DNA of 40,847 bases, taken from a virus. Positions 1,013 to 24,607 of this stretch are shown one piece after another. The stretch lies in the UHGV virus genome UHGV-0390358; one strand, written 5' to 3'. Both the position numbers and the translations under genes were made by a program. Below the pieces are notes generated by a model, which was not told the origin of the DNA, searched no databases, and saw only the letters and a list, made by a program, of their open reading frames with translations. Within the stretch, counting starts at the first letter, position 1. Each line of letters opens with the position of its first letter.

Positions 1013-1040
1013 GTCCATAAAAAAGCCCTCAGTGCGGGCT
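1013..1040 (-). terminator. Rho-independent terminator of the two-gene minus-strand operon
   Basis: On minus strand AAGCCC-gcactga-GGGCTT followed by TTTTTAT, immediately after the TAA stop at 1040-1042. Confidence 0.5.
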
Positions 1041-1417
1041 TAATTAACTTCGAGGATAATAGAATCTTTAGACTTGAATCCCACTTTCCTCATGGCTGTA
1101 ATGACGTTTTGGATAACCCACGTTTTCCCAAACTCTCTTTCGTGTACAATGGCGCAAGGAAAATGAAGGGCGCTTTTGTTGCACTTTATGGTGAAAGTTG
1201 TACCTTCAGCAAAATCCAAAACAGTCTGCAGATGTGCAGATATAAACGATTTAAACACATCTTCAAGCTCAGCAAGAGTAATTGGCGGTTTGTTCCTCTC
1301 GTCGTTCAGGCGTTCATATGCTGCGTGAAATGAAAAGTGAATTCTTGCCGCATCTTCTTGCAAGATCTCGTTAATCTCATCCTCAAGATCAATGAGTTGT
1401 TGTTCTGTTATAGACAT
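1040..1417 (-). CDS. Hypothetical protein, 125 aa, acidic N-terminus; second gene of a two-gene operon
   Basis: ATG at 1417 overlaps the upstream gene stop (ATGTCTATAA), indicating translational coupling; ends at terminator. Confidence 0.5.
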   Translation of the reverse strand: MSITEQQLIDLEDEINEILQEDAARIHFSFHAAYERLNDERNKPPITLAELEDVFKSFISAHLQTVLDFAEGTTFTIKCNKSALHFPCAIVHEREFGKTWVIQNVITAMRKVGFKSKDSIILEVN

Positions 1418-1626
1418 AGATAACGGGAGGTCGCCTCACTTATTTTTTGATTTAATTCATCATCATTGGATGCACGTACAGTAGCAACATGCTTACTTTG
1501 GCGTAGGGTCCCAATTCTGATATCAAATTCTTCATTATCGAAAGAGTCAACGAAAACAGCTTTACCAGTTTCTGGATGGTAAAAAGAGGCATAGTTTTGG
1601 TTGAGTTGCATATCAAATTTAAACAT
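1408..1626 (-). CDS. Hypothetical protein, 72 aa; first gene of a two-gene operon
   Basis: Strong ribosome-binding site GGGAGGA 5 nt before ATG at 1626; operator-like palindrome upstream at 1744-1758. Confidence 0.55.
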   Translation of the reverse strand: MFKFDMQLNQNYASFYHPETGKAVFVDSFDNEEFDIRIGTLRQSKHVATVRASNDDELNQKISEATSRYLCL

Positions 1627-1824
1627 ATCATCCTCCCATACGGGAACAGACGTGACTTACATACGGTGTGATTTTGACTAGTTAACTTTCTGCAGCAAAA
1701 CCATCACGGTAACTACAAACTAAAATGTTACAAATCAACTTTCTTACCTTTGGGGTAATAGTACGCTATTCACCTGCAATCTGTACAGAATTATTTAAAG
1801 GCACATCCCTGTGCCGCCGTTCTG

Positions 1825-2511
1825 TCAGAAGACCCCTGCCTTGTCGTTGATGTATTCCGCGTGGGTCTGGATATCACGCAGGCATTTACTCACACCGACG
1901 ATGTAGCAGAACATGGTGGTCAGTTCCGCCGCCGCGCCCGATACGTCGTGCCCGTCTTCCTGTAACTGGTTCAGCAGATTCATCAGCAGTGAGTTCTCCG
2001 TCAGGCCGAGAACACCAGACGGCGAGTGAATCAAACTGCGGTAGCCGGGCTTCAGCGGGGCGCTGTAGGTGTTGTTCTCTATCTTCATTGCCTGCATCAC
2101 TGCTGACGCCGTGGCGTTGGCTACCTGGTCGGCAACCATCTTTATGCGTTCTTCCTGCGGGAGCGAGTTTTTAATGTAACTTCCGGTGCGGCGGATCTGA
2201 GGAAGAACCTCACCCGTAACCCATTTACGAAAGCGGTAGGGGATAGTGCCTGGTGTCACCGCATCGCGGCAGCGGAGGATCAGTGTGTAGAGGCCTGACT
2301 CGTTGATAATATTGGTTTCGCCTTGACGGCCTAAGTTAAATTTAGCCCTTTCATCATCATCAAGAGATTTTATTGACATAGTGGGGTTTGTCAGTTGAAG
2401 AGCTTTAATAACGTCTTTGGCAACAAACCAAGGATTTCCATCAATAACAATGGCTCGAATGGTTGCCTCTGATTCAAAATGAAAAACAGATGGGGTTACG
2501 TTAGCAGTCAT
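1825..2511 (-). CDS. Bro-N domain + KilA-C (phage antirepressor-type) domain protein
   Basis: N-terminal FHFESEATIRAIVIDGNPWFVAKDVIKAL matches the Bro-N signature; C-terminal domain is paralogous to the 3657..3914 protein; start taken at internal ATG 2511 (MTANV...) rather than the ORF-track start 2664. Confidence 0.65.
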   Translation of the reverse strand: MTANVTPSVFHFESEATIRAIVIDGNPWFVAKDVIKALQLTNPTMSIKSLDDDERAKFNLGRQGETNIINESGLYTLILRCRDAVTPGTIPYRFRKWVTGEVLPQIRRTGSYIKNSLPQEERIKMVADQVANATASAVMQAMKIENNTYSAPLKPGYRSLIHSPSGVLGLTENSLLMNLLNQLQEDGHDVSGAAAELTTMFCYIVGVSKCLRDIQTHAEYINDKAGVF

Positions 2512-2905
2512 AGTGATCACCTTTGTAGTTAGGTTAATCACCACTACCGACGCCAATCGGTTGGTGGTGAACTGTGCAGGGTTGGCGTAACCGGCTACAA
2601 AGGACCCGGCGCACCTTTCGGTGCCCCCACACAGCCCACCATAGAATAGGTGCGCTTTACACATAAAAAAACCGCTTATGCGGCATATGTGCCTCTGTAG
2701 TAACCCGGGACGCCAATCCCGGCACTGGATTTTGCCAGTGCCCGATTACTATGGCACAAGAGGAGTGCGATGTAAATTTACCGCAAAGGTAATGATAAGC
2801 GCGAAGAAATATTAAAATCAACCGTATTTGGTTGATTGCGTTTAACGCTTGATCACCTGAAAGCAAGATATTACCTTTAAGGTAATGTTATTGTGAGGAA
2901 AAGCA

Positions 2906-3634
2906 ATGGAAGTTTTCTGGATAGTTGTTGGTGTGGTTGCGGTGATTATTTACGTTATCAACCAGAACAAGACTAAGATCTCTGATCGTACGGTCGTTAA
3001 TCAGAACAAAACGATAAAGACCGAAGATGGGGAGGTAACGATTAGTCGTACACAGGTGATAGAACACACATCTACTCAGTTTCAAAAAACTGGAGGTAAC
3101 GCGCCTGATATTTCCGTACCTCCTGCTTATGATAGTGCGGTAATCCAGACATATTATAAACAGCAGGAGTTTGCAAAAGAGAGGCAACTGATTCAGCCAA
3201 AGCCGTTTACAGCTGAGCTTCCACCTGGAGTGTCAACGCGTCCGGCATATCATGGAAGATTCCCTGGTGATGACATATCGTCTCAGTCATCTAAAAAAGC
3301 ACCTCAGGCAGTATCAGAGCCAGCAAGAATACCTTCTGTATCGCCGCCAAAAGAAGAATCAGCTAACAGAGTTTCAAGTGGCCGCAAGCAGTGTTTGCGA
3401 TGCAGAATAAACCTTCCATATGACAAATTCCGGAAATCGTCAAAAAATCCAGATGGATTGACTAAGTGGTGTGCAAGGTGTCTCGATGGCCCAAAGAATA
3501 CACGCCATATGAAGTGGTGCCCAATTTGTAATGTCCGCAGAAAACGGACCAGCTTTTACCCTAATAATCAAAATGCGGACGGCTTAATGGCATGGTGCAA
3601 AACGTGCTGGGACGAGCACAAAGCGAAACGATAG
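2906..3634 (+). CDS. Membrane-anchored protein with two C-terminal CxxC...CxxC zinc-ribbon-like repeats, unknown function
   Basis: ATG at 2906 with GAGGA ribosome-binding site; N-terminal TM helix; repeats CLRC..DGLTKWCARC and CPIC..DGLMAWCKTC; operator palindrome 2871-2885 immediately upstream. Confidence 0.6.
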   Translation: MEVFWIVVGVVAVIIYVINQNKTKISDRTVVNQNKTIKTEDGEVTISRTQVIEHTSTQFQKTGGNAPDISVPPAYDSAVIQTYYKQQEFAKERQLIQPKPFTAELPPGVSTRPAYHGRFPGDDISSQSSKKAPQAVSEPARIPSVSPPKEESANRVSSGRKQCLRCRINLPYDKFRKSSKNPDGLTKWCARCLDGPKNTRHMKWCPICNVRRKRTSFYPNNQNADGLMAWCKTCWDEHKAKR

Positions 3635-3656: not shown

Positions 3657-3914
3657 TTACCGGGTTTGTTTTCGTAATTGTTCGGCACAATAGTCGAGAT
3701 GTGTTTGCAGATCCTGCATAGACATCTGTGAGCTGGTGACGTAGTTAATCAGTGCAGTCAGTTCGGCAAGTGGGCCATCGACATTAAATCCATCCTTATC
3801 GAGATCTCGGAGTAATTTCATCAAGTGCGATCCCTCCACCAGTGACCTGACGCCTCCCGGCGTGTGAATCCTTTCGGTAAATCCGTTTTCCAGTGGATAG
3901 TGATACTGCTGCAT
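3657..3914 (-). CDS. Stand-alone KilA-C-like small protein; candidate SOS-inducible antirepressor
   Basis: Paralogous to the C-terminus of the 1825..2511 protein (HTPGGVRSLVEGSHLMKLLRDL... versus HSPSGVLGLTENSLLMNLLNQL...); GGAG ribosome-binding site favours the ATG at 3914 over 3929; LexA box 6 bp upstream. Confidence 0.6.
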   Translation of the reverse strand: MQQYHYPLENGFTERIHTPGGVRSLVEGSHLMKLLRDLDKDGFNVDGPLAELTALINYVTSSQMSMQDLQTHLDYCAEQLRKQTR

Positions 3915-3934
3915 CTTAATCTTCTCCATGCAAT

Positions 3935-3954: not shown

Positions 3955-4110
3955 GCAAATAATTTGTTTGCTATCCAGCACGTTTTGCAAATTACCTGAA
4001 AGGTAATATCTATTCGTATTTACAGCCTTTCTATCCATATGTGGTTTTTCAGGTAATAGAATAACCAGATATGCGGCGCAACGGGTGCTGCGACTATCTG
4101 GAGATTTAAC

Positions 4111-7100
4111 ATGACGGTCTCAACCGAAGTTGACCACAACGAATACACCGGTAACGGCGTTACGACATCGTTTCCGTATACTTTTCGAATTTTCAGAAAA
4201 TCAGACCTGGTTGTTCAGGTGTCTGACCTGAACGGGAACGTAACAGAATTGGTTCTGGATACCGGTTATACGGTAACTGGGGCGGGCACTTATAGTGGCG
4301 GTTCTGTGGTTCTTCCGTCTCCGCTTGCTACTGGATGGCGAATTACGATAGATCGTGTGCTTGATGTAGTGCAGGAGACAGACCTTCGCAATCAGGGAAA
4401 ATTTTTCCCCGAAGTGCATGAAGATGCCTTTGACTACCTGACGATGCTGATCCAGCAATGTTTTGGGTGGTTCAGACGTGCATTGATGAAACCATCTTTG
4501 CTTGCAAAATATTACGATGCAAAGCAAAACAAAATTTCTAACCTTGCAGATCCATCATTTGAGCAGGACGCTGTAAATAATCGCTCAATGCGTAATTATG
4601 TCGATGCTGCAATCGCCGGGGTTGTTGGTGGTTTTGGTTGGTTTATTCAGTATGGTTCTGGGGCTGTGTACCGAACGTTCCAGGATAAAATGCGTGATGC
4701 TATTAGCCCCAAAGATTTTGGAGCTGTTGGTGATGGTATAAATGACGATTCCACTGCAATAAGCGCGTGCCTTGAAGCCTCATCTCCAGTTTATAAAATT
4801 GACGGATTAGGGCTTACTTTTAAAGTATCAACTCTTCCGGATGTCAGTCGATTTAAAAATGCTCGTTTTTTATTTGAGAGAATACCGGGTCAGCCTCTTT
4901 TTTATGCTTCTGAAGATTTTATCCAGGGAGAGTTATTTAAAATTACAGATACACCGTGGTACAACGCCTGGACGCAGGATAAAACGTTTGTATATGACAA
5001 TGTCATCTATGCGCCTTTTATGGCTGGAGACCGCCATGGTGTAAATAACCTCCATGTTGCATGGGTTCGCTCAGGAGATGACGGGAAGACCTGGACAACG
5101 CCGGAATGGCTTACAGATTTACATGAAAACTATCCCACAGTTAACTATCACTGCATGTGTATGGGGGTTGTCAGAAATCGCCTTTTTGCTGTAATTGAGA
5201 CGCGGACCGTGAGCGGAAATAAACTGCAGGTTGCAGAGTTGTGGGATCGCCCAATGAGTCGCAGCCTTCGCGTTTATGGTGGTATAACGAAAGCAGCAAA
5301 TCAGCAAGTCGCTTATATTCGCATTACTGATCACGGATTATTTGCTGGTGATTTTGTCAACTTCTCAAACTCTGGTGTTACAGGTGTTACCGGGAATATG
5401 ACGGTGACTACTGTTATTGATAAAAATACTTTTACAGTTACGACGCAAAATACCCAGGATGTGGATCAGAATAACGAGGGTAGATACTGGAGTTTTGGTA
5501 CATCATTTCACTCTTCACCATGGAGAAAAACCAGTCTTGGAACTATTCCTTCTTTTGTTGACGGAAGCACTCCTGTTACTGAGATTCACAGTTTTGCGAC
5601 GATTAGCGATAACAGTTTTGCTGTTGGCTACCATAATGGTGATATTGGTCCACGCGAGCTTGGGATACTCTATTTCTCTGATGCTTTCGGTTCTCCTGGT
5701 AGCTTTGTTCGCAGACGCATACCTGCAGAATATGAGGCGAATGCATCTGAGCCATGTGTAAAATATTATGATGGCATTCTGTATCTGACGACCAGGGGGA
5801 CATTAAGTACTCAACCCGGTAGTTCATTGCACAGAAGCTCTGATTTAGGTACATCATGGAATTCTCTTCGCTTCCCAAATAATGTTCATCACTCAAACCT
5901 TCCTTTTGCCAAAGTTGGCGATGAGCTGATTATTTTTGGCAGTGAGCGCGCATTTGGTGAGTGGGAAGGAGGAGAGCCTGATAACCGTTATGCAGGAAAT
6001 TATCCAAGAACATTTATGACCAGAGTTAACGTCAATGAGTGGAGTCTGGATAATGTAGAGTGGGTTAATGTTACTGATCAGATTTATCAGGGCGGAATAG
6101 TTAACTCTGCGGTTGGTGTTGGTTCAGTTTGTATCAAAGACAACTGGCTGTACTACATTTTCGGTGGGGAAGACTTTCTAAACCCATGGAGCATAGGGGA
6201 TAACAACAGAAAATATCCTTATGTTCACGATGGTCACCCGGCTGATTTGTATTGTTTCAGGGTGAAAATTAAACAGGAAGAATTTGTTTCAAGGGATTTT
6301 GTCTACGGAGCCACTCCTAACAGAACGCTTCCTACTTTTATGTCGACGTCAGGCGTGAGGACGGTTCCTGTACCCGTTGATTTCACAGATGATGTTGCCG
6401 TCCAGTCACTGACTGTCCATGCAGGTACATCAGGACAAGTTCGCGCGGAAGTCAAACTTGAGGGTAATTACGCCATTATTGCGAAGAAAGTACCGTCTGA
6501 TGATGTTACCGCTCAGAGATTAATCGTTAGCGGCGGTGAAACAACGTCTTCAGCAGATGGTGCAATGATAACGTTGCATGGTTCCGGAAGCAGTACTCCA
6601 CGTCGCGCGGTATATAACGCACTCGAACATCTTTTTGAGAACGGAGATGTTAAACCTTATCTTGATAATGTAAATGCTCTTGGTGGTCCGGGAAACAGGT
6701 TCTCGACAGTTTATCTTGGCTCCAATCCTGTGGTTACCAGTGACGGAACATTAAAGACAGAGCCGGTCTCTCCTGACGAAGCATTGCTGGATGCCTGGGG
6801 TGACGTCAGGTATATCGCTTATAAATGGCTGAACGCTGTCGCTATAAAGGGGGAAGAAGGGGCGAGGATACATCATGGTGTAATCGCGCAGCAACTTCGT
6901 GATGTTCTTATTTCTCACGGACTCATGGAAGAAGAAAGCACAACATGCCGCTATGCCTTTCTTTGCTATGACGATTATCCCGCAGTATATGATGACGTCA
7001 TTACTGGCCAAAGGGAAATGCCGCTGACTGATAATGACGGGAGCATCATTGTTGATGAGGATGATAATCCAGTGATGGTAATGGAAGACATCATTGAGCG

Positions 7101-7230
7101 CGTTGAAATAACGCCAGCAGGATCTAGATGGGGGGTCAGACCTGATCTCTTATTCTATATCGAGGCAGCATGGCAGCGCAGAGAAATGGATAAGATAAAA
7201 GAGCGGATTCAGTCTCTGGAAGAACGTTAA
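4111..7230 (+). CDS. Tailspike endosialidase (endo-N-acetylneuraminidase) with C-terminal intramolecular chaperone domain
   Basis: 1039 aa; conserved podovirus tailspike N-terminal head-binding region; sialidase Asp-boxes SGDDGKTW and SSDLGTSW; C-terminal HGVIAQQLRDV... autoproteolytic chaperone-type domain. Confidence 0.85.
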   Translation: MTVSTEVDHNEYTGNGVTTSFPYTFRIFRKSDLVVQVSDLNGNVTELVLDTGYTVTGAGTYSGGSVVLPSPLATGWRITIDRVLDVVQETDLRNQGKFFPEVHEDAFDYLTMLIQQCFGWFRRALMKPSLLAKYYDAKQNKISNLADPSFEQDAVNNRSMRNYVDAAIAGVVGGFGWFIQYGSGAVYRTFQDKMRDAISPKDFGAVGDGINDDSTAISACLEASSPVYKIDGLGLTFKVSTLPDVSRFKNARFLFERIPGQPLFYASEDFIQGELFKITDTPWYNAWTQDKTFVYDNVIYAPFMAGDRHGVNNLHVAWVRSGDDGKTWTTPEWLTDLHENYPTVNYHCMCMGVVRNRLFAVIETRTVSGNKLQVAELWDRPMSRSLRVYGGITKAANQQVAYIRITDHGLFAGDFVNFSNSGVTGVTGNMTVTTVIDKNTFTVTTQNTQDVDQNNEGRYWSFGTSFHSSPWRKTSLGTIPSFVDGSTPVTEIHSFATISDNSFAVGYHNGDIGPRELGILYFSDAFGSPGSFVRRRIPAEYEANASEPCVKYYDGILYLTTRGTLSTQPGSSLHRSSDLGTSWNSLRFPNNVHHSNLPFAKVGDELIIFGSERAFGEWEGGEPDNRYAGNYPRTFMTRVNVNEWSLDNVEWVNVTDQIYQGGIVNSAVGVGSVCIKDNWLYYIFGGEDFLNPWSIGDNNRKYPYVHDGHPADLYCFRVKIKQEEFVSRDFVYGATPNRTLPTFMSTSGVRTVPVPVDFTDDVAVQSLTVHAGTSGQVRAEVKLEGNYAIIAKKVPSDDVTAQRLIVSGGETTSSADGAMITLHGSGSSTPRRAVYNALEHLFENGDVKPYLDNVNALGGPGNRFSTVYLGSNPVVTSDGTLKTEPVSPDEALLDAWGDVRYIAYKWLNAVAIKGEEGARIHHGVIAQQLRDVLISHGLMEEESTTCRYAFLCYDDYPAVYDDVITGQREMPLTDNDGSIIVDEDDNPVMVMEDIIERVEITPAGSRWGVRPDLLFYIEAAWQRREMDKIKERIQSLEER

Positions 7231-14974: not shown

Positions 14975-15559
14975 TTATTGTTTGCTTTTTTCGTTCTGGT
15001 TGATGACAAATTCAATGTAACTTTCGATCTTTGCTTTCTCGGTTTCGGGTAACAATGCGTAGCGTGAGCGGTCATAGTTGATAGTCGCAGGGTCGTGCGG
15101 GTGAATCAGTAGTTCATATCCGTGACGCCCGAATGCGGATGCAACATTCTCCAGGGTGGAAATGGAAACGCTGACCTCATTGTTTAACAGGCGGCTGATT
15201 GTCACCTGGGCGACGCCGGATGCGCGGTGAAGTTTTCCCTGTGTTGAAAGGTCGCGGCTTTCGCTCATCCAGCGTTCCAGGTTGTGAGCCGCCAGCTGAC
15301 CTATATCGCTCGGGCCGACAGGCTGAAAACCCTCCTGAGAAAGCGAACGATCAATATCAAGCCAGTTACGGGGTTTATTGGCGGCAGCTTCAATTTTTCG
15401 TGCAACCTGGTCGCCGATAACCTTCTTGCCAAGAGCCCAGCGGTTTACCAGATTTGCCTGAGTTCCAAGTTTTTCTGCCATCCGCGTCTGAACACCATTG
15501 AATTCACGGTCGATCAAGTCGTTGAGATTTTGCCTGCGGACGTCCTGGATACTTTTCAT
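14975..15559 (-). CDS. Prophage repressor with two tandem XRE-type HTH domains and no peptidase S24 autocleavage domain
   Basis: 194 aa; HTH-like segments QTRMAEKLGTQANLVNRWALGK and VAQVTISRLLNNEVSVSISTLENVASAFG; divergent from Cro-like gene across an operator-containing region. Confidence 0.7.
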   Translation of the reverse strand: MKSIQDVRRQNLNDLIDREFNGVQTRMAEKLGTQANLVNRWALGKKVIGDQVARKIEAAANKPRNWLDIDRSLSQEGFQPVGPSDIGQLAAHNLERWMSESRDLSTQGKLHRASGVAQVTISRLLNNEVSVSISTLENVASAFGRHGYELLIHPHDPATINYDRSRYALLPETEKAKIESYIEFVINQNEKSKQ

Positions 15560-24530: not shown

Positions 24531-24607
24531 TGGCGTGGCATGCAGGATTCGAACCTGCGACCAACCGCTTAGAAGGCGGTTGCTCTGTCCAACTGAGCTA
24601 ATGCCAC
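24531..24607 (-). tRNA. tRNA-Arg (anticodon UCU)
   Basis: Reverse complement folds as a 77-nt cloverleaf: 7-bp acceptor stem GTGGCAT/ATGCCAC, D-arm GCTC..GAGC, anticodon loop CTTCTAA, T-arm GCAGG-TTCGAAT-CCTGC, 3' CCA; differs from E. coli argU in the acceptor stem. Confidence 0.9.

Follow-up and report, generated by a model that had tools for sequence, protein, structure and literature searches.

Within the 40,847-nucleotide virus genome UHGV-0390358 (hereafter the window, by which we mean this whole stretch of DNA), two small overlapping genes, here called A and B, lie between the injection and tail genes and the endosialidase tailspike gene, directly 3' of a gene for a Bro-N antirepressor. 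We find that A and B are coupled to each other and form an accessory module that travels in one piece among prophages, plasmids and chromosomes. In addition, we tentatively propose, with a confidence that stops somewhat short of an even chance, that the pair is a toxin-antitoxin-like cassette in which B would be the effector and A its inhibitor. The parts of the module are:

1408-1626, minus strand: gene A, an open reading frame of 72 aa (pI 5.2), the proposed inhibitor or partner of B
1040-1417, minus strand: gene B, an open reading frame of 125 aa (pI 5.2), the proposed effector
1408-1417, minus strand: the 10-nt ATGTCTATAA stop/start overlap, with the ATG of B at 1417-1415 and the TAA of A at 1410-1408, read directly
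1631-1636, minus strand: a GGAGGA ribosome-binding site 4 nt 5' of the ATG of A, read directly
1013-1041, minus strand: an intrinsic terminator found by a terminator scan, with a stem-loop at 1041-1023 followed by the TTTTATGGAC T-run

An earlier note on this DNA had described an overlapping two-gene operon (72 aa and 125 aa) with a strong ribosome-binding site and a terminator across the second stop codon, and all of these elements were borne out, namely both open reading frames with their 10-nt overlap, the GGAGGA at 1636-1631, and the stem-loop at 1041-1023 with its T-run. The terminator stem comprises 6 pairs, 4 of them G-C, and takes in the last bases of the TAA of B. The ribosome-binding site of A is kept as GGGAGGA in the Klebsiella copy of the pair and as GGAGG in the Pantoea allii copy. 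Direct reading revealed no well-spaced Shine-Dalgarno sequence belonging to B itself, so translational coupling of B to A is plausible. Both open reading frames are real genes: they have homologues of conserved length in Gamma- and Betaproteobacteria (Klebsiella, Enterobacter, Salmonella, Pantoea, Erwinia, Rahnella, Proteus, Pontibacterium, Pseudoduganella and Chromobacterium), in which specific residues are invariant at identities as low as 31-41%.

The linkage of the two genes is strict. A lies directly upstream of B in all ten genomic loci found via B (two of them decayed) and in all 38 viral loci found via B, and B adjoins A in 41 of the 42 viral loci found via A. In the 13 intact pairs whose junction was measured, the two genes are always tightly joined, the extremes being a 56-nt overlap and a 10-nt gap. 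A and B have also diverged in step, as shown by the correlation of their pairwise divergences (r 0.88, Mantel p 0.0002). The settings in which this unit occurs are diverse. It is found behind a Bro-N antirepressor gene in podovirus-like prophages of Escherichia coli and Klebsiella, behind a pRha+ANT antirepressor gene in a siphovirus prophage of Chromobacterium, within tail-gene clusters or beside repressor or integrase genes in other prophages, on a Pseudomonas megaplasmid, and at non-phage chromosomal sites in Pantoea and in a metagenomic contig. A TATAAT promoter of the pair's own is present upstream in Pantoea EA-12, Erwinia S63, a metagenome-assembled genome and a Pseudomonas silvicola plasmid. 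Two copies are decayed: in that on plasmid p1 of Pseudomonas silvicola (locus 2757-3267) A is frameshifted and B has an internal stop, and in that of Pseudoduganella violaceinigra (locus 2752-3300) A is intact and B lacks ~25 residues spanning beta3-beta4. An apparent A-B fusion protein (P0098) from plasmid p1 proved to be the frameshifted, stop-containing pseudogene and no genuine fusion.

In the window the pair occupies a variable slot downstream of the antirepressor gene. The window is a complete temperate phage genome (40.8 kb, circularly permuted) of the epsilon15/phiV10-like podovirus type, one relative of which, phiv142-3, is classified under Uetakevirus; the region tested is identical (100%) to a prophage of E. 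coli Es_ST80_L1_NDM_10_2017 and 98.9% identical to a prophage of enterotoxigenic E. coli H10407. Alignment with the sister phages TL-2011b and phiv142-3 shows backbone identity that starts at the antirepressor stop codon, takes in a small hairpin and a promoter-like stretch, and extends over a palindrome at 1744-1758. This identity covers the palindrome side (1744-1800), stops after the palindrome, and returns at the terminator hairpin (about 1023-1055) and beyond. The terminator hairpin (GCCCGC...GCGGGC followed by a T-run) also stands 3' of different cargo in TL-2011b and phiv142-3 and 3' of B in Klebsiella and Pantoea allii. The terminator thus marks the left edge of the slot and the palindrome its right edge. 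Among the phage relatives we saw five different cargos in this slot:

This window, Es_ST80 and H10407: A (72 aa) and B (125 aa)
TL-2011b: a 59-aa open reading frame and a YafO-family toxin
UTME-9: a YafO-family toxin, the small upstream open reading frame lacking annotation there
AMSHJX01, isolate 624: a DUF4760 protein
SCZE5: a 62-aa and 110-aa pair without assigned function
phiv142-3: two tiny open reading frames

In a search of 5,426 complete E. coli genomes, 75 matched part of a query covering positions 1000-1800, most of those listed matched the backbone segment 1744/1751-1800 only, and the full pair was present in only 4. The slot content has the attributes of prophage accessory ('moron') cargo, including conserved flanks, unrelated and variable content, a terminator, and an atypical composition, with a G+C content of 39% for the A-B module versus 48% for the window. 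The flank between the pair and the antirepressor gene holds the following features:

1744-1758, no strand: the palindrome TTACC-N5-GGTAA, TTACCccaaaGGTAA, one of 16 copies and the right edge of the cargo slot
1758-1787, minus strand: a candidate weak promoter, TGTACA (1787-1782), 18 nt, TACTAT (1763-1758), proposed by reading and not from a consensus scan
1800-1815, minus strand: a hairpin, GGCAC-AGGGAT-GTGCC, just 3' of the antirepressor stop codon, of uncertain role

The palindrome had been described in the earlier note as the pair's own operator. It is indeed present at 1744-1758, but as an element of the phage backbone: it is kept in front of other cargo in the sister phages TL-2011b and phiv142-3, and within the first 25 loci its perfect copies are confined to the E. 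coli and Klebsiella relatives of the phage, the chromosomal and Chromobacterium copies of the pair having none. The promoter-like region, too, is lacking where the pair sits in chromosomes. We therefore rejected the palindrome as a component of the pair and, judging from these alignments, assign both it and the promoter-like region to the phage backbone. A search across the genomic contexts for a conserved site upstream of A that might serve as an autoregulatory operator found none.

Across the window the TTACC-N5-GGTAA pattern has 16 matches (11 of them perfect), starting at 1744, 2778, 2871, 3992, 9587, 14841, 14903, 15615, 15663, 16000, 17908, 17970, 21361, 21379, 24312 and 24930, compared with 0.67 expected from shuffled sequences, no shuffle having reached 16. 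Two copies lie between a gene for a 194-aa tandem-helix-turn-helix (HTH) repressor (14975-15559, minus strand) and a cro-like gene, and two more lie on the other side of the repressor gene; we therefore read the palindrome as a putative operator of the phage repressor. Single copies precede many operons, including those of the tailspike, the terminase and the integrase, and the left arm is frequently TATTACC, which is like a -10 element. Two copies fall right on a ribosome-binding site or start codon (17970, TTACCTTAGAGGTAAatcATG, and 24312). The set probably represents a genome-wide repressor regulon, and a role at the RNA level is possible.

The -10 element of the candidate promoter abuts and overlaps the palindrome. 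The consensus scan was silent here because merely 8 of 12 positions match; TL-2011b and phiv142-3 have TTGCAG-17-TACTAT at this place. Relative to these two phages the window has a 7-bp deletion (actgtgg) at 1764-1781, in the stretch between the antirepressor hairpin and the palindrome, which lies in the spacer and alters the spacing of the putative cargo promoter. The hairpin itself keeps its pairing in Klebsiella with two base-pair changes (GGCGC...GCGCC); it is poor in T-tract, and the scan called no terminator there.

The earlier note had recognized neither protein, and our searches agree with it: profile searches (Pfam, NCBIfam, PADLOC and PHROGs) and PDB sequences gave no functional match for either A or B, the PHROGs matches leading only to families without assigned function (for B, phrog_14518 at E 5.6e-78 and the C-terminal domain of phrog_23027 at E 1.9e-5). 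Literature searches on the pair's accessions, locus tags and PHROG identifiers found nothing, and those on DUF5824/cytidyltransferase and on Uetakevirus hot spots found nothing specific. Structure prediction, which the same note had suggested for both proteins, gave a confident model for A (pLDDT 90.9), consisting of a four-stranded antiparallel sheet and a C-terminal helix with no significant structural neighbour, and an unreliable AlphaFold2 model for B (pLDDT 49). The most conserved feature of A is an invariant acidic hairpin, FVDSFDNxEF.

B proved to be a stand-alone copy of an alpha+beta domain of ~115 residues that we found in 680 representative proteins (profile search, E<=1e-3). The family, which has no name, forms 1,241 clusters at 90% identity, and the domain either makes up a protein by itself (35 cases) or is the N-terminal (44), C-terminal (43) or internal (17) part of a larger one. 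Its carriers, all annotated as hypothetical, are mainly marine and rhizobial T4-like myophages and include relatives of Pelagibacter HTVC008M, Methylophilales Melnitz, Sinorhizobium phiM12 and Flavobacterium immuto. Counted by Pfam family among 95 multidomain relatives of B, the fusion partners are CTP_transf_like (20 members), DUF5824 (15), Zeta_toxin / AAA_33 kinase (7), DUF5661 (2), DUF3008 (2), and PAP2, GNAT, tRNA_lig_CPD and NTP_transf_2 (1 each). Weak Pfam matches in relatives of B (MuF_C in one member, E 0.003; Int_N in two, best E 5e-4) were set aside as below gathering scores and not recurrent. One marine metagenome contig carries two separate B-domain genes (2251-3030 and 3995-4636) a few genes downstream of a CTP_transf_like gene (41-1393); the CTP_transf_like and B domains, separate in this contig, are fused into a single protein in other phages.

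Eight residues of B are invariant across the family (H31, R36, R41, N42, E50, P87, T107 and R110), six of them polar. Mean-field coevolution analysis of 325 domain sequences (effective number 156) recovered the beta3-beta4 hairpin, the beta2-beta5 pairing and the packing of alpha1 against alpha3, together with long-range couplings between N38 and F114, D39 and K111, and D39 and V112. From these long-range couplings it follows that the two invariant motifs of B probably form one site, which looks like an active or ligand-binding site.

The distribution of A and B apart from each other is asymmetric. The B-domain genes of virulent marine T4-like phages have no A-like neighbour, and B genes resident in cells or temperate elements always have A with them. 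A homologue of A without B is found in the Erwinia jumbo phage Kaldavass (PQ464595; locus coordinates 2995-3207) and in a related 355-kb IMG/VR contig (3001-3210), the latter being the sole A-without-B locus among the 42 viral loci found via A. In both, the gene occupies the same place, flanked by phoH and a nucleotidyltransferase gene; in Kaldavass, Sir2 and Nudix genes are also nearby. The jumbo-phage protein is a true homologue of A (45-59% identity), and three different B queries found no B in Kaldavass. Chromosomes of Erwinia and Pantoea, by comparison, carry the A+B pair. When we searched 50,697 phage records with A and B by tblastn, matches were confined to Uetakevirus-like phages and Kaldavass, with none in P1 or P7.

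Thus B occurs alone in virulent phages, A and B together in cells and temperate elements, and A alone in a virulent phage whose hosts belong to a group with the pair, while a toxin pair can occupy the same slot. The simplest explanation of this pattern would be that B is an effector that harms cells or phages and A its inhibitor, which would make the cassette one of a new family. The data establish the anatomy of the pair, its strict linkage, its mobility, its slot, and the domain family of B with the company that this keeps; what we infer is that A binds B and that B is toxic, and with these the substrate of B and the biological role of the pair. The cassette, self-contained and mobile, would work like a toxin-antitoxin or effector-immunity pair. 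A would be made first from the shared mRNA and, being translationally coupled to B, would bind B and hold it inactive, the likely contact being that of the acidic hairpin of A (VDSFDNxEF) with the basic His/Arg/Lys site of B. B would be an enzyme-like effector whose active site is built from the invariant motifs H-x4-R-x-ND-x-RN and T-x-M-R-K and whose substrate is probably RNA or a nucleotide. Placed behind the antirepressor gene and downstream of a repressor-type operator, the cassette may be released or activated during infection or induction, with abortive-infection-type protection or addiction as the possible outcome. Besides the strict linkage, the mobility and the pattern of occurrence, three observations favour such a role: the presence of a YafO-family toxin in the slot of the pair in TL-2011b and UTME-9, which is circumstantial; the catalytic look of B, with its invariant residues, coevolving motifs and nucleotidyltransferase and kinase fusion partners; and the patterns of decay, with A intact and B deleted in Pseudoduganella and both genes broken in Pseudomonas silvicola.

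Several points weigh against a toxin-antitoxin role. With regard to B, neither the protein nor 35 members of its family matched a toxin family in Pfam, NCBIfam or PADLOC, and B, with its pI of 5.2, is acidic, unlike the majority of RNase toxins, which are basic. A pattern in B ('strand-H-x4-R...I(T/S)xxEL') would suit a RelE/DUF4258-like fold, but hhalign gave a probability of <1% against RelE and YafO, and a fold of these two was rejected. Virulent phages carry the B domain in several copies and fused to nucleotidyltransferases and kinases, and such a domain could just as well be a harmless module for binding or for RNA or nucleotide processing or repair. With regard to A, no significant match was found to ribbon-helix-helix (RHH), HTH, AbrB or Phd/YefM DNA-binding domains, and the protein is a compact single domain with neither a recognised DNA-binding fold nor a disordered tail, unlike most type II antitoxins. 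PADLOC-DB v2, searched at E<=1, had no match for A, B or four neighbouring proteins. The argument from A without B rests on only two related jumbo phages. Finally, if the palindrome is the operator of the prophage repressor, the pair would be silent in lysogens, which is a poor fit with a resident defence or addiction role. The toxin-antitoxin or defence reading offered in the earlier note stands in part: the pair is a coupled, mobile accessory module with circumstantial support from slot and distribution, but B has no likeness to a known toxin and A has no recognisable DNA-binding antitoxin domain.

A wider scenario, which we put forward as doubtful, builds on the same distribution. B, as a stand-alone protein, would found a large family of enzymatic domains (at least 1,200 clusters at 90% identity) that serves marine T4-like phages as an effector directed at the host or at RNA or nucleotides. 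In Proteobacteria it would have been domesticated, along with its dedicated inhibitor A, as a new abortive-infection system of the toxin-antitoxin type, which Erwinia jumbo phages would counter with a stolen A.

The strongest alternative to a toxin-antitoxin cassette, though in our estimation an unlikely one, is that the pair is a non-toxic two-subunit accessory factor for lytic growth, for example in counter-defence or in RNA or nucleotide repair, with B as the substrate-binding or catalytic module and A, instead of inhibiting B, as an adaptor or regulator particular to its subfamily. Most of the B family does reside in virulent phages, sometimes as two B-domain genes per locus beside a CTP_transf_like gene, and the domains to which it is fused (AAA_33 kinase, tRNA_lig_CPD and nucleotidyltransferases) look like those of enzymes that heal RNA ends or act on nucleotides. 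The position of the pair after an antirepressor gene and a repressor-type operator would probably place its expression with early lytic functions, and the retention of A alone in jumbo phages shows that A can be useful to a phage by itself. However, the pair is just as much at home at isolated positions in chromosomes, under a sigma-70 promoter of its own, and a role in lytic growth would hardly make sense there. Moreover, an accessory factor leaves unexplained why A is needed only where the cell carries B stably, and a bona fide toxin family is among the cargo of the same slot.

Distinctly less probable is that A is a small DNA-binding regulator, its beta-sheet-plus-helix architecture being like that of AP2 or integrase arm-binding domains, and that the pair modulates the immunity circuit through the antirepressor or the repressor. 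This would account for the position of the pair directly after an antirepressor gene in two phage types that are unrelated and whose antirepressors belong to different families (Bro-N in E. coli and Klebsiella, pRha+ANT in Chromobacterium), but many loci have no nearby antirepressor (chromosomal sites, tail-gene clusters and integrase-proximal sites), the invariant surface of A is acidic and so unfavourable to DNA binding, and the region upstream of A holds no operator that is conserved across contexts. It is scarcely credible that A and B are ordinary structural or housekeeping phage genes or functionless, decaying hitch-hikers, as their location between injection/tail genes and the tailspike gene and the pseudogenised copies might suggest, given that the pair is absent from most phage relatives (4 of 5,426 E. 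coli genomes carry it in full), is replaced by unrelated cargo, occurs outside phages as well, and retains strongly conserved specific residues of A and B across genera.

The neighbourhood of the pair contains further regulatory elements, which belong to the adjacent antirepressor gene:

1825-2511, minus strand: the Bro-N antirepressor gene, with its stop codon at 1825-1827
2560-2646, minus strand: a C4 antisense RNA (RF01695), Rfam 79.5 bits (gathering score 45)
2665-2741, minus strand: an isrK RNA (RF01394), Rfam 74.7 bits (gathering score 50)
2702-2754, minus strand: a c4 a1/b1 target element (RF03163), 44.1 bits, slightly below the gathering score of 46.7

These C4/isrK-type RNA elements (2560-2754, minus strand) stand just upstream of the antirepressor gene, as a P1-type immI operon requires, and the antirepressor therefore appears to be controlled by an RNA switch of the P1/P7 type (Gifsy-1 IsrK-type). 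An Rfam scan of 1013-1758 found no known RNA family. Between the antirepressor and the tailspike lies a second variable slot, which in the window holds a plus-strand gene at 2906-3634 for a product of 242 aa with an N-terminal hydrophobic segment, C-terminal zinc-ribbon repeats and weak Stc1 / endonuclease-VII-like matches; at the equivalent position the Klebsiella relatives have DUF2335, DUF4760, DUF6236 or a reverse transcriptase (RVT_1). A 90-aa open reading frame at 3657-3929 (minus strand; phrog_450) is homologous to residues 197-277, the C-terminal part, of the antirepressor open reading frame 1825-2664, and seems to be that C-terminal domain in stand-alone form. The tailspike gene (4111-7230, plus strand) carries a RefSeq annotation as an endosialidase catalytic beta-propeller domain, which suggests K1-capsule specificity, and a tRNA-Arg(TCT) gene is located at 24531-24607 on the minus strand.

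If the pair does act as we propose, it would represent a toxin-antitoxin or defence family whose components are both unlike any described so far, and it would provide a first functional handle on a domain present in hundreds of uncharacterised proteins from marine myophages, which are abundant and include relatives of Pelagibacter, Methylophilales, Sinorhizobium and Flavobacterium phages. Kaldavass, set against pair-carrying Erwinia and Pantoea strains, would then be a natural test case of counter-defence through capture of an antitoxin. Should this proposal be wrong, the pair would still exemplify cleanly what a mobile accessory cassette is. Independently of the proposal, the slot that lies between operator and terminator in epsilon15/phiV10-like (Uetakevirus-like) prophages could be mined for more small systems.

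How does the pair compare with known systems? It shares with type II toxin-antitoxin systems a small upstream gene that is apparently translationally coupled to a larger downstream gene and inherited with it as a unit. It is likewise self-contained, bringing a terminator and, at chromosomal sites, a promoter as well; it has a patchy, mobile spread over phages, plasmids and chromosomes; and its slot is identical to that of the YafO-family toxin and small upstream open reading frame of TL-2011b. Unlike those systems, B falls in no recognised toxin superfamily and is acidic, and A is without a recognisable DNA-binding domain. The order of the genes, inhibitor first, differs from that of barnase-barstar and of Rhs pairs such as TreX-TriX and TreTu-TriTu. 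Furthermore, no secretion or Rhs/CdiA-type delivery domains are found among the fusion partners of B, whose multidomain carriers are phage proteins, and structural similarity to the barnase-barstar and Rhs toxin-immunity pairs was at noise level.

The phage T4 protein Dmd is a phage-encoded antitoxin mimic that acts against RnlA and LsoA and is unrelated in sequence to the cellular antitoxins. The Erwinia jumbo phages are reminiscent of this arrangement in that they carry a homologue of A without B while Erwinia and Pantoea chromosomes carry both genes; they differ in that their protein is a true homologue of A. A second parallel is with the immI region of P1 and P7, which consists of the c4 RNA, icd and ant, followed by the repressor-controlled kilA-repL operon. 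The C4 antisense RNA and isrK-type leader just upstream of the antirepressor in the window are of this kind, though they are features of the neighbouring gene and not of A or B. By a positional analogy, an antirepressor is followed in both cases by an operator-preceded two-gene unit. However, KilA and RepL are far larger than A and B, which have no detected similarity to them and also occur far from any antirepressor, and the operator sequence of the window differs from the P1 C1 operator. Nor are A and B icd-like or ant-like constituents of a P1-type c4-icd-ant operon, as they lie downstream of ant and not upstream. The A-B pair falls outside every described family and is best filed with two-gene systems of the toxin-antitoxin or effector-immunity kind.

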